A DNA stretch of 64,000 nucleotides from Escherichia coli. Lineage in GTDB: Bacteria; Pseudomonadota; Gammaproteobacteria; Enterobacterales; Enterobacteriaceae. Location of the stretch: the NCBI RefSeq assembly GCF_030013595.1, contig NZ_CP122768.1. One strand, given 5' to 3'. The first letter of the stretch is position 1; every line of letters starts with the position of its first letter. The notes under the pieces were generated by a model, which was not told the DNA's origin, ran no database searches, and was given only the letters and a program-made list of their open reading frames with translations. Shown in pieces: positions 41,867 to 47,825 of the stretch. Both the position numbers and the translations under genes were made by a program.

Positions 41867-41880
41867 TTGATAACGATCAA
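41867..41880 (+). promoter_or_regulatory. FNR-box consensus upstream of ydhY
   Basis: TTGAT-aacg-ATCAA, perfect FNR/CRP-family palindrome about 200 bp upstream of ydhY ATG in AT-rich DNA. Confidence 0.55.
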
Positions 41881-42081
41881 TGTTAAGAGCTCAGAATAAT
41901 CACATTATTTTTTCTCCTAACCATAAAGGATTAGTTTATCAGCGTTAAATCTTTTCTCATACACTATCGGGTTAGGGAAAATATCTGGTGTTGGGGACAG
42001 AGTCAGCAGCGTATTAGTTGAATGCTTAATATCAGTCTGCTGAATTGTCAGCACTGTGTTTGCGAAGAGGATGCGAAATAA

Positions 42082-42708
42082 ATGAACCCGGTTGATCGTC
42101 CACTATTAGATATTGGCTTAACGCGATTAGAATTCTTGCGTATATCAGGAAAAGGCCTTGCTGGTCTAACAATTGCCCCTGCGTTACTGTCACTTTTGGG
42201 TTGCAAACAGGAAGATATTGATAGCGGCACAGTAGGGTTGATAAATACACCCAAAGGGGTGCTGGTGACCCAACGTGCTCGATGCACGGGTTGCCACCGC
42301 TGTGAAATCTCTTGTACCAACTTCAACGATGGTTCAGTAGGGACATTCTTCTCCCGTATCAAAATCCATCGCAATTATTTCTTTGGCGACAACGGGGTTG
42401 GCTCTGGCGGCGGCCTGTATGGCGATCTCAACTATACCGCGGACACTTGCCGTCAATGCAAAGAGCCGCAATGCATGAACGTCTGCCCGATTGGTGCGAT
42501 TACCTGGCAGCAGAAAGAAGGGTGTATTACCGTCGATCATAAATGTTGTATTGGCTGTAGCGCCTGTACGACGGCGTGCCCGTGGATGATGGCCACCGTA
42601 AATACCGAAAGTAAAAAATCCTCGAAATGTGTGTTATGCGGTGAATGCGCAAACGCCTGCCCAACAGGGGCGTTAAAAATTATCGAGTGGAAAGATATTA
42701 CTGTGTGA
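42082..42708 (+). CDS. ydhY: 4Fe-4S ferredoxin-type protein with four Cys clusters
   Basis: 208-aa ORF with four CxxCxxCxxxC(P) motifs. Confidence 0.85.
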   Translation: MNPVDRPLLDIGLTRLEFLRISGKGLAGLTIAPALLSLLGCKQEDIDSGTVGLINTPKGVLVTQRARCTGCHRCEISCTNFNDGSVGTFFSRIKIHRNYFFGDNGVGSGGGLYGDLNYTADTCRQCKEPQCMNVCPIGAITWQQKEGCITVDHKCCIGCSACTTACPWMMATVNTESKKSSKCVLCGECANACPTGALKIIEWKDITV

Positions 42709-42728
42709 ATCTTGCAAAGGAAAAAATC

Positions 42729-45558: not shown

Positions 45559-46227
45559 ATGTCCTTCACTCGACGCAAATTTGTTCTGGGGATGGGAACA
45601 GTAATCTTTTTTACTGGTTCTGCGTCTTCTCTGTTAGCGAACACGAGGCAAGAAAAGGAAGTTCGGTATGCCATGATTCATGACGAGTCACGGTGCAATG
45701 GCTGTAATATTTGCGCCCGCGCATGCCGTAAAACTAACCACGTCCCCGCTCAGGGAAGCCGTTTATCGATAGCACACATTCCAGTCACCGATAACGACAA
45801 CGAAACGCAGTATCACTATTTTCGCCAGTCATGCCAGCACTGTGAAGATGCTCCTTGCATCGATGTTTGCCCGACAGGGGCGTCGTGGCGTGATGAGCAG
45901 GGGATCGTGCGGGTAGAAAAATCGCAGTGCATCGGCTGCAGTTATTGCATTGGCGCTTGCCCGTACCAGGTTCGCTACCTTAACCCTGTCACTAAAGTGG
46001 CAGATAAATGTGATTTCTGCGCTGAGTCCCGACTGGCAAAAGGCTTTCCGCCCATTTGCGTCAGCGCCTGCCCGGAACACGCCTTGATCTTTGGTCGCGA
46101 AGATAGCCCAGAAATTCAGGCGTGGTTGCAGGAAAATAAATACTATCAATATCAGCTACCTGGTGCCGGGAAACCGCATCTGTATCGCCGATTCGGTCAA
46201 CATTTGATTAAAAAGGAAAATGTATGA
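45559..46227 (+). CDS. ydhX: ferredoxin-like protein with twin-arginine signal
   Basis: 222-aa ORF from MSFTRRKFVLG (Tat motif) with four Cys-cluster motifs; track ORF starts 17 codons earlier. Confidence 0.8.
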   Translation: MSFTRRKFVLGMGTVIFFTGSASSLLANTRQEKEVRYAMIHDESRCNGCNICARACRKTNHVPAQGSRLSIAHIPVTDNDNETQYHYFRQSCQHCEDAPCIDVCPTGASWRDEQGIVRVEKSQCIGCSYCIGACPYQVRYLNPVTKVADKCDFCAESRLAKGFPPICVSACPEHALIFGREDSPEIQAWLQENKYYQYQLPGAGKPHLYRRFGQHLIKKENV

Positions 46228-47009
46228 ACCCGTCGCAACATGCTGAACAGTTTCAGAGCCTGTTGGCGAACTATGTGCCACAGTTCACTCCCGAATTTTG
46301 GCCGGTGTGGTTGATCATTGCCGGACTATTGCTGGTTGGGATGTGGTTGGTGCTGGGGCTGCATGCCTTGCTTCGTGCTCGTGGCGTGAAGAAATCAGCC
46401 ACCGATCATGGTGAGAAGATTTATCTTTACAGCAAAGCGGTCAGATTATGGCACTGGTCGAATGCGTTACTCTTTGTATTGTTGCTGGCAAGTGGGCTGA
46501 TAAATCACTTTGCGCTGGTGGGCGCAACTGCGGTTAAAAGTCTGGTTGCGGTGCATGAAGTTTGCGGATTTTTGTTACTGGCATGCTGGCTTGGCTTTGT
46601 TCTGATCAATGCCGTTGGGGGTAATGGTCACCACTATCGCATTCGTCGTCAGGGTTGGCTGGAGCGAGCGGCAAAACAAACGCGATTTTATTTGTTTGGT
46701 ATTATGCAGGGGGAAGAACATCCTTTCCCGGCAACAACACAGTCTAAATTTAATCCCTTACAGCAGGTCGCCTATGTTGGTGTCATGTATGGATTGCTGC
46801 CGTTGTTACTATTGACGGGGCTGCTGTGTCTCTATCCGCAAGCCGTGGGAGATGTGTTTCCTGGCGTAAGATACTGGTTATTGCAGGCGCATTTTGCTCT
46901 GGCATTTATAAGCCTCTTTTTTATCTTCGGTCATCTTTATCTTTGCACCACGGGGCGTACGCCACACGAAACCTTTAAAAGCATGGTCGATGGCTATCAC
47001 CGGCACTAA
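46224..47009 (+). CDS. ydhU: integral membrane cytochrome-b-like (PhsC-like) protein
   Basis: 261-aa multi-TM ORF; 4-bp overlap with ydhX. Confidence 0.8.
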   Translation: MNPSQHAEQFQSLLANYVPQFTPEFWPVWLIIAGLLLVGMWLVLGLHALLRARGVKKSATDHGEKIYLYSKAVRLWHWSNALLFVLLLASGLINHFALVGATAVKSLVAVHEVCGFLLLACWLGFVLINAVGGNGHHYRIRRQGWLERAAKQTRFYLFGIMQGEEHPFPATTQSKFNPLQQVAYVGVMYGLLPLLLLTGLLCLYPQAVGDVFPGVRYWLLQAHFALAFISLFFIFGHLYLCTTGRTPHETFKSMVDGYHRH

Positions 47010-47012
47010 CGA

Positions 47013-47825
47013 ATGATCATTACACGAGCAGACCTGCGAGAATGGCGTATCGGAGCGGTGATGTATCGCTGGTTCCTGCGCCATTTCCCACGCGGCGGTA
47101 GTTATGCCGATATTCATCATGCACTGATTGAGGAAGGATATACGGACTGGGCGGAGAGTCTGGTTGAGTATGCGTGGAAAAAATGGCTGGCGGATGAAAA
47201 CTTCGCGCATCAGGAAGTTTCCTCTATGCAAAAATTGGCCACAGATCCCGGAGAGAGAGCATTTTGTAGTCAGTTTGCCCGCAGCGACGATCATGCTCGC
47301 ATCGGCTGTTGTGACGATAACGCCAGAATCGCAACCGCTGGGTATGCTGCACAAATTGCCAGTATGGGTTATAGCGTGCGGATTGGAAGTGTCGGCTTTA
47401 ACAGTCACATTGGCAGCTCCGGTGAGCGTGCACGGGTTGCTGTAACCGGCAATTCTTCGCGGATAAGCAGCGCTGGAGATAGTAGTCGGATTGCGAATAC
47501 CGGAATGCGAGTACGCGTTTGTACATTGGGTGAACGGTGTCATGTCGCCAGTAATGGTGACCTGGTGCAAATCGCCAGCTTTGGCGCAAACGCCAGAATT
47601 GCCAACAGCGGCGACAATGTACACATCATTGCCAGCGGTGAAGATTCAACAGTAGTGAGCACGGGCGTGGTCGACTCAATTATTCTCGGGCCAGGGGGAA
47701 GCGCCGCACTGGCATATCATGACGGCGAAAGAGTTCGCTTCGCCGTCGCCATTGAAGGTGAAAACAATATTCGAGCCGGAGTCCGCTATCGCCTTAATGA
47801 ACAGCATCAGTTTGTTGAGTGCTGA
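47013..47825 (+). CDS. ydhT: uncharacterised protein with about 13 tandem 9-residue repeats
   Basis: 270-aa ORF; central region is periodic x-R-[IV]-x-x-x-G-x-x. Confidence 0.8.
   Translation: MIITRADLREWRIGAVMYRWFLRHFPRGGSYADIHHALIEEGYTDWAESLVEYAWKKWLADENFAHQEVSSMQKLATDPGERAFCSQFARSDDHARIGCCDDNARIATAGYAAQIASMGYSVRIGSVGFNSHIGSSGERARVAVTGNSSRISSAGDSSRIANTGMRVRVCTLGERCHVASNGDLVQIASFGANARIANSGDNVHIIASGEDSTVVSTGVVDSIILGPGGSAALAYHDGERVRFAVAIEGENNIRAGVRYRLNEQHQFVEC

Follow-up and report, generated by a model that had tools for sequence, protein, structure and literature searches.

The ydhYVWXUT operon of Escherichia coli re-identified in a genome with a frameshifted ydhV: published FNR control, comparative gene content and a candidate periplasmic reductase

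In a 64,000-nt stretch of Escherichia coli DNA (contig NZ_CP122768.1), referred to as the window, an earlier note made from the letters alone described an FNR-box-preceded operon of multi-ferredoxin oxidoreductase genes and named it ydhYVWXUT. This name agrees with both the synteny with strain K-12 and the NCBIfam equivalog models, and we have hardly any doubt that the locus is the core-genome operon ydhYVWXUT of E. coli. The earlier note correctly re-identified an operon that was known before, as were its control by FNR and the open question of its substrate. Overlooked in the earlier note are a frameshift that splits ydhV in the present copy, a signal of the twin-arginine translocation (Tat) type with a lipobox in YdhY, the FNR control already in print and the BamB-like metal site of YdhV.

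The identity of the genes is supported by NCBIfam equivalog scores well above the respective cut-offs for YdhY (431.9 bits, cut-off 213), YdhV (1167, cut-off 868, with the second of its two open reading frames (ORFs) alone), YdhW (384.6, cut-off 203), YdhU (456.7, cut-off 204) and YdhT (489.7, cut-off 300). No dedicated equivalog model exists for YdhX, and its best match, NrfC at 247 bits, lies below the cut-off of 377.6 and is a family-level similarity. The operon is located between fumD (ydhZ) and the convergent ydhS, the order pykF / ynhH / fumD (ydhZ) / ydhY-V-W-X-U(phsC)-T / ydhS being the same in K-12 and in the closest genome. A match to the 6.3-kb region was retrieved in 5,425 of the 5,426 complete E. 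coli genomes, at 95–99.9% nucleotide identity and with at least 80% of the region covered in 5,395 of them; the closest were two isolates from pig faeces (99.9% identity). In comparison with K-12 (b1674–b1669), locus, order and flanks are the same, the proteins near-identical and the FNR box identical and equally distant from ydhY, whereas a +1 G frameshift in ydhV and the private substitutions YdhY R155C and YdhV G185R are found only in the present copy; ydhW counts 216 codons here and 215 in K-12. Of the six co-oriented, tightly packed genes described earlier, orientation and packing hold (intergenic distances of 20, 12–15, 63, −4 and 3 nt), but not the integrity of all six reading frames, ydhV being split by an extra G.

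In the window, ydhV reads as two ORFs in different frames, of 125 codons (42729–43106) and 609 codons (43003–44832), respectively. As the operon is written, full-length YdhV could not be made from it, because the extra G at 43013–43019 shifts the frame; indeed, once a single G is deleted from the run, an intact YdhV of 700 aa is obtained. The run consists of seven G here and of six in the closest genome, in K-12 and in two further strains, and no other G or C run in the window reaches seven. In 5,320 of the 5,325 matching complete genomes, a 71-nt probe spanning it aligned with a gap of one base, and none was identical among the matches listed.

Private changes, defined as those differing from both the closest genome and K-12, were collected over the 32.6 kb compared and amounted to 14, namely six synonymous (sufC, two in sufD, ydhQ, punR and purR), two intergenic, four nonsynonymous (ydhY, ydhV, ydhP and lhr) and two homopolymer indels (+G in ydhV and −T at 63917 in lhr). 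Three of them (42544, 43013 and 43282) fall within 740 bp of ydhY–ydhV. The substitutions YdhY R155C (42544) and YdhV G185R (43282) occur in none of the matching complete E. coli genomes, and both affect residues that are invariant in the orthologues compared. In the alignment with PDB sequences, the canonical AOR motif reads GRxGxGAxMGSKNLKA, and G185R restores its GR. In lhr (minus strand, 63917–63924), a T7 run replaces the T8 of the closest genome and K-12 and breaks the gene, which also carries a private Q-to-H substitution at 63561, 356 bp from the T-run deletion.

A real inactivation accompanied by relaxed selection and a locally poor consensus appear equally probable as the origin of the ydhV frameshift. 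A sequencing or assembly artefact, comprising the nearby substitutions and leaving the operon of the strain intact and functional, has thus an even chance of being the right explanation. It would account for a +1 change in the sole G or C run of this length, in a state (G7 instead of G6) found in none of the ≈5,325 complete E. coli genomes, and for the fact that the sole other indel with respect to the closest genome in the aligned parts is again a change in homopolymer length and again breaks a conserved gene. Moreover, three private changes in 740 bp, together with the two in 356 bp of lhr, are denser than 14 per 32.6 kb, which fits a poor local consensus. On the other hand, the private substitutions beyond ydhYV (six synonymous, two intergenic, two nonsynonymous) look biological, no further indels with respect to the nearest genome were found in the aligned window, and all three private changes of ydhY–ydhV alter the protein at invariant positions, as relaxed selection after an inactivation would yield. 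If the frameshift is real, the strain is a natural ydhV null, in which the premature stop may be polar on ydhWXUT; a natural ydhV-null allele is possibly what this window contributes of its own.

The operon is preceded, as the earlier note had it, by a perfect FNR consensus in AT-rich DNA. The box TTGATAACGATCAA (41867–41880, plus strand) is the sole perfect TTGAT-N4-ATCAA in the 64 kb; it sits in intergenic DNA of 32% GC, against 50% for the window, and starts 215 nt 5′ of the ydhY ATG (42082), identically in K-12. A box that keeps the AACG spacer but has one mismatch is present before ydhY in Edwardsiella tarda (at −177) and in Jinshanibacter (at −147), and some 5,000 of the complete E. coli genomes retain a 71-mer around the E. 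coli box at ≥95% identity. In shuffled sequences 0.13 perfect boxes were expected, with at least one box in 12 of 100 shuffles. The FNR-box finding thus goes well beyond what chance would give.

Activation by FNR through a class II site at −42.5 has already been published: ydhYVWXUT is FNR-positive by chromatin immunoprecipitation (ChIP) and FNR-activated in Myers 2013, where the site at −42.5 is given with reference to Partridge 2008. FNR-dependent expression, whose absence the earlier note had named as an argument against its proposal, is therefore documented by ChIP and expression data, and the reporter with a mutated FNR box that it had suggested is not new. When the box centre (41873/41874) is set at the −42.5 of K-12, the transcription start would lie near 41916, leaving a 5′ untranslated region of about 166 nt. 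A generic sigma-70 scan did not call the ydhY promoter, as expected of a class II activator-dependent promoter.

As for other regulators, FNR, NarL and NarP are named in the title of Partridge 2008, and the literature has the ydh operon repressed by NarL/NarP. Regulators listed for ydh are FNR and NarL, and in vitro the promoter favours the sigma-S over the sigma-70 form of RNA polymerase. The ydh operon also belongs to the Fur regulon in strain CFT073, and a Fur ChIP peak is reported in MG1655. The stretch 41627–42081 contains no perfect NarL/NarP heptamer TACYYMT, which over the whole window is as frequent as expected by chance. A link with formaldehyde through FrmR was discarded, as the ydhY promoter served merely as negative control in the study concerned. 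A riboswitch or leader RNA in the ≈166-nt leader was likewise rejected, with no Rfam match at E ≤ 1 in 41300–48100 and a predicted fold that does not surpass those of shuffled sequences (z = −0.88). Both dmsABC and frdABCD combine FNR activation with nitrate repression. They have class II FNR activation in common with ydh, frdABCD being listed as FNR-activated together with ydhYVWXUT in Myers 2013, but they differ from it in substrate and catalytic family.

The frame-repaired YdhV (700 aa) shows homology with Pfam AFOR_N (E = 1e-68) and AFOR_C (E = 1.7e-47), in line with the AOR family given in the earlier note, and its nearest solved relatives in the PDB are aldehyde and formaldehyde oxidoreductases and BamB (4z3w). 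No signal peptide is present. The [4Fe-4S] motif CxxCxxxC next to the pterin site (C307-H-S-C310-P-I-R-C314) does not vary among orthologues and distant homologues, and Cys336 is invariant in the five orthologues compared. According to Reschke 2019, as reported in later papers, YdhV binds a redox-active bis-molybdopterin (MPT) cofactor with molybdenum (Mo) preferred over tungsten (W), its [4Fe-4S] cluster is labile and no substrate was identified. The Mo-bis-MPT cofactor, like the gene identities and the FNR site, is thus established here or in the literature. A 2025 review describes Cys336 as an additional metal ligand, as in BamB, and the AOR second-shell residues as absent. Because of these two features YdhV should not be classed as an aldehyde oxidoreductase, even though the AOR/WOR-family members that have been characterised are mostly aldehyde oxidisers. 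The RefSeq name "aldehyde ferredoxin oxidoreductase" over-reaches, and the aldehydes that the earlier note had suggested as substrates are weakened by the Cys-ligated, BamB-like Mo site. BamB, the catalytic subunit of the class II benzoyl-CoA reductase, belongs to a sister clade and shares with YdhV a Cys that ligates the metal and a lack of AOR second-shell residues; however, it is a cytoplasmic W enzyme within the electron-bifurcating BamBCDEFGHI complex, whereas Ydh is Mo-preferring, associated with Tat and lipobox signals and paired with a quinol-type cytochrome b.

The families of the electron-transfer subunits are also those assigned previously. YdhY (PRK09898) has four Cys motifs, which would fit four [4Fe-4S] clusters. 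Its N-terminus, LTRLEFLRISGKGLAGLTIAPALLSLLGC, includes a Tat-like signal, LTRLEFLRISGKGLAG, followed by an LLGC lipobox (Cys41). A twin arginine is lacking, the corresponding pair being R-L in E. coli (LTRLEFLR), R-Q in Edwardsiella and R-K in the distant locus L017. However, the segment aligns with the canonical signals of distant homologues (SRRQFLKISGKGLAG...LFGC and TRREFLKISGKGAVG...MMGC), the FLR-SGKGLAG h-region is strongly conserved, and the Gly-Cys lipobox (L-L-G-C41) is invariant in the enterobacterial set. In a small sample of about ten loci, the second arginine of YdhY is replaced by L, Q or K in all five systems that encode YdhX, while the pair is RR in all five systems without an adjacent YdhX. 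The pattern points to YdhY as a present or former lipoprotein exported by Tat, with YdhX supplying or sharing the targeting signal in Enterobacterales. YdhX itself begins with MSFTRRKFVLG, a twin-arginine signal followed by a hydrophobic region (MSFTRRKFVLGMGTVIFFTG), and is a four-cluster ferredoxin similar to NrfC, PhsB, TtrB and DmsB.

YdhU is a membrane b-type cytochrome (Pfam Ni_hydr_CYTB, E = 7e-31; PhsC model NF011582, 456.7 bits) presumed to hold the quinol/quinone site; a sequence search against the PDB gave no match for it. The RefSeq/PGAP names "phsC" and "thiosulfate reductase cytochrome B subunit" are probably an over-annotation of ydhU, because no phsA- or phsB-type reductase with a Mo-bis(pyranopterin guanine dinucleotide) cofactor (Mo-bisPGD) is encoded with it. 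Indeed, no gene with a Molybdopterin or Molydop_binding domain was found in the operon, the catalytic gene of which is of the AOR fold. The resemblance to PhsABC/PsrABC and to NrfCD-type quinol modules lies in the PhsC-like YdhU and in the Tat-exported four-cluster ferredoxin YdhX, and the logic of PhsABC/PsrABC (quinol, cytochrome b, ferredoxin, periplasmic Mo enzyme with a Cys ligand) is that of Ydh. In contrast to those systems, Ydh has no Mo-bisPGD PhsA/PsrA but an AOR fold with a nucleotide-free bis-MPT, a second ferredoxin (YdhY) and the extra proteins YdhW and YdhT.

Neither YdhW nor YdhT had shown a recognisable catalytic motif to the earlier note, and neither gave a match in the Pfam-A release used or in a PDB sequence search, so that no catalytic domain was found in them. 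The newer Pfam families YdhW_C and YdhT_N exist with no function attached, and inspection of both N-termini revealed no recognisable signal sequence. YdhW is acidic (pI 4.3), and its family counts 520 representatives at 50% identity (E ≤ 1e-3). Its AlphaFold2 model, built on an alignment of 40 sequences (predicted local distance difference test, pLDDT, 92.4), shows two winged-helix domains in tandem, in agreement with a repeat within the sequence; with Foldseek, the best hit was the tandem winged-helix region of SelB (E = 1e-3), and the winged-helix repeats of RNA polymerase III subunits and of ESCRT-II were also among the best. A TorD/NarJ-type chaperone (Nitrate_red_del) was considered for YdhW and rejected, since no Pfam hit was obtained and the model is winged-helix and not all-helical. 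YdhT is predicted to have an N-terminal helical domain and a beta-solenoid of 9-residue repeats with a Gly every 9 residues (AlphaFold2 pLDDT 85.5), for which the structure search retrieved generic beta-helix matches only. Its homologues form 47 clusters, and all those named or located belong to Enterobacterales (Escherichia, Citrobacter, Jinshanibacter, Edwardsiella).

Gene neighbourhoods in other organisms separate the operon into parts. The Y-V-W-X-U-T cassette is found with unrelated flanks in Jinshanibacter and in two metagenomic contigs, one of which is cut upstream, within ydhV. E. tarda (locus L008, CP100802.1, 5690–10954) has ydhY-V-W-X-T without ydhU, adjoining napFDAGHBC and a narQ/narP-like pair. 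Among the other loci, L013 reads ferredoxin-AOR-YdhW-TatA-TatC, L014 YdhW-FdhD-TatA-TatA, L015 contains two ferredoxin-AOR-YdhW sets, L017 reads mobB-moaA-fdhD-Y-V-W-X-U-moeA and L019 ferredoxin-AOR-like-YdhW-FdhD. The triad Y-V-W, recovered in L013, L015, L017 and L019, is, on gene content, the conserved core outside Enterobacterales, with X and U as an optional quinol module and T as an enterobacterial addition. This core adjoins Tat and molybdenum-cofactor genes, with fdhD beside ydhW in L014, L017 and L019 and mobB, moaA and moeA in L017. FdhD is a sulfurtransferase or cofactor chaperone of formate dehydrogenases. Its recurrence hints that the YdhV-type cofactor may need FdhD-dependent maturation. 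As to the substrate, the flanks differ among E. coli, Edwardsiella, Jinshanibacter and the metagenomic contigs, with no transporter or regulator conserved among them.

We propose, with about an equal chance of being right or wrong, that Ydh is a periplasm-facing, quinol-linked terminal reductase, and we infer its topology, in which direction the electrons flow and what YdhW and YdhT do. The enzyme would act when oxygen and nitrate are lacking. Menaquinol would be oxidised at the b-type cytochrome YdhU, and the electrons would pass to the Tat-exported four-cluster ferredoxin YdhX, from there to the four-cluster, lipoprotein-like ferredoxin YdhY, and finally, within YdhV, to its [4Fe-4S] cluster and to the Mo-bis-MPT ligated by Cys336, the site at which the substrate would be reduced. 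YdhV would be exported folded, hitch-hiking on YdhY and/or YdhX. YdhW would most likely assist from the cytoplasm, as a maturation or escort factor, in the loading of the cofactor or in export by Tat, and YdhT would probably have a scaffolding role.

The periplasmic reductase model draws on the Tat and lipobox signals, on the tatAC genes beside the core in a distant locus, on the PhsB/PhsC-like partners, on an active site that is BamB-like rather than AOR-like, and on FNR-activated, nitrate-repressed regulation. In particular, the reductive direction is suggested by a regulation resembling that of dms and frd and by a Cys-ligated Mo which, together with PhsB/PhsC-like partners, would mimic the Mo-bisPGD reductases. 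A classification of June 2026 assigns YdhV to the Class V (clade 41) WORs, described there as membrane-associated and periplasm-oriented.

Several points weigh against this proposal. Purified YdhV was inactive, and the direction given to the electron flow is a proposed one. The YdhY of Enterobacterales lacks the second arginine (RL/RQ), its own Tat competence being putative, and the quinol link is not universal, given that Edwardsiella has no ydhU and several distant systems have no X, U or T. The tandem winged-helix fold of YdhW is unlike known redox-enzyme maturation chaperones, and its suggested role comes from the gene neighbourhood of less than ten loci. Some donor-side enzymes, e.g., hydrogenases, are likewise under nitrate repression, so that regulation is no proof of a reductase. 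The details of NarL/NarP repression are those attributed to Partridge 2008.

The reverse direction, i.e., a periplasmic dehydrogenase of aldehydes or of another low-potential donor that feeds the quinone pool through YdhY, YdhX and YdhU for detoxification or energy conservation, seems unlikely. The placement of YdhV in the AOR/WOR family by both Pfam and NCBIfam, its closest solved relatives and the aldehyde oxidation performed by most characterised members would speak for this reading, which the RefSeq name implies, as would two weak hints on ydhU, namely the presence of its deletion in the sensitive group of a Keio screen with the aldehyde reuterin and the altered fitness of its transposon mutants under furfural and other chemicals. 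These fitness effects, however, span 10 unrelated chemicals and are not specific to aldehydes; no aldehyde activity is reported in the literature for purified YdhV, and its lack of the second-shell residues of aldehyde-active AORs and its Cys metal ligand point to the reductase BamB. That YdhY and YdhV stay in the cytoplasm, with YdhU conducting electrons across the membrane between a periplasmic YdhX and a cytoplasmic YdhYV, is quite improbable: the RL, RQ or RK in place of RR in every system with YdhX and the absence of a signal peptide in YdhV and of a recognisable one in YdhW and YdhT would fit it, but the remaining YdhY signal (FLR-SGKGLAG and Gly-Cys lipobox) is conserved and homologous to RR signals, which argues for a use in export or anchoring, a periplasmic YdhX would have no obvious role without a periplasmic catalytic partner, and dedicated tatA and tatC genes lie beside the Y-V-W core in a distant locus.

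The periplasmic reductase model can be extended, tentatively and with more doubt than the model itself, to an AOR-fold, menaquinol-linked enzyme matured by FdhD-like sulfuration and by YdhW, in which YdhW would represent a new tandem winged-helix escort class for Class V WORs and Tat targeting would have moved from YdhY (RR to RL) to YdhX in Enterobacterales. Should this hold, E. coli would use in the gut, as acceptor, an anaerobic respiratory substrate that is yet to be discovered.

A described type of system close to Ydh is WOR41 (Class V, clade 41), which comprises WorL (YdhV) and WorS (YdhY), with a Tat or transmembrane signal on WorS and extra membrane or cytochrome subunits as in Ydh. 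The E. coli enzyme prefers Mo whereas CsWOR41 of Cetobacterium somerae prefers W, and the Enterobacterales version differs by the addition of YdhT and by the degenerate RR of YdhY. According to the June 2026 classification, no enzyme of Class V had been natively purified or given an activity or physiological role. The literature on ydhV, ydhY, ydhT, ydhW, ydhU and ydhX consists of regulon lists, fitness and expression screens and cofactor work, with no substrate; papers of 2022, 2025 and June 2026 assign no substrate, activity or physiological role to the Ydh system, in line with the unknown substrate of the earlier note, which a published assignment would have overturned.

Few molybdoenzyme systems of E. 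coli are still uncharacterised, and ydhYVWXUT is one of them; it is also the model for the Class V WORs, a group frequent in gut bacteria that accounts for >10% of the family. Identifying the Ydh substrate would give the best-studied bacterium a further respiratory or detoxification pathway. The window makes the substrate question no more tractable than the K-12 literature does. Handles on topology and maturation are offered by the Y-V-W core, its adjacency to tatAC, fdhD and molybdenum-cofactor genes, the RR-to-RL change of YdhY in the presence of YdhX and the fold predictions for YdhW and YdhT. What the comparison yielded on YdhW, YdhY and YdhT should be read as experimental leads and not as established discoveries.

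Table 1. Features of the ydhYVWXUT region and its immediate neighbours, in window coordinates.
Feature	Position	Strand	Remarks
fumD	41417–41626		NCBIfam NF007630
Terminator-like hairpin 3′ of fumD	41631–41659	+	12-bp stem, 6 GC pairs, T-rich tail; upstream edge of the ydhY control region
Inferred −10 region CATTATT	41903–41909	+	Placed by spacing from the FNR box
ydhY	42082–42708	+	NCBIfam PRK09898; four-[4Fe-4S] ferredoxin (WorS)
ydhV	42729–44832	+	AOR/WOR-family Mo-bis-MPT catalytic subunit (WorL), frameshifted here
G7 homopolymer	43013–43019	+	G6 elsewhere in E. coli; +1 frameshift at ydhV codon 97
ydhW	44845–45495	+	NCBIfam PRK09947; ORF open from 44836
ydhX	45559–46227	+	Tat-signal four-cluster ferredoxin; ORF open from 45508; start taken from the closest genome and K-12
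ydhU	46224–47009	+	NCBIfam NF011582; 4-nt overlap with ydhX
ydhT	47013–47825	+	NCBIfam PRK09946
ydhS	47831–49441	−	Convergent downstream neighbour

Some differences were also recorded elsewhere in the window. The first 1383 nt did not align to the corresponding part of the closest genome, where a phage integrase and a hypothetical gene lie beside btuC, and this suggests the boundary of a strain-specific island. Near ydiF/aroD (21098–21106) the closest genome is about 57 bases longer, at the junction of two alignment blocks, and in the ydiM/ydiL gap (≈25494–25507) the closest genome, HCP5S3_I2, carries the IS5-family element ISKpn26, which is not in the window. In addition, the pykF ORF (39447–41075, minus strand) runs 72 codons upstream of the annotated start and spans ynhH in frame, with no stop in between; ynhH is a recently annotated small gene of 65 aa that ends 7 nt before pykF.

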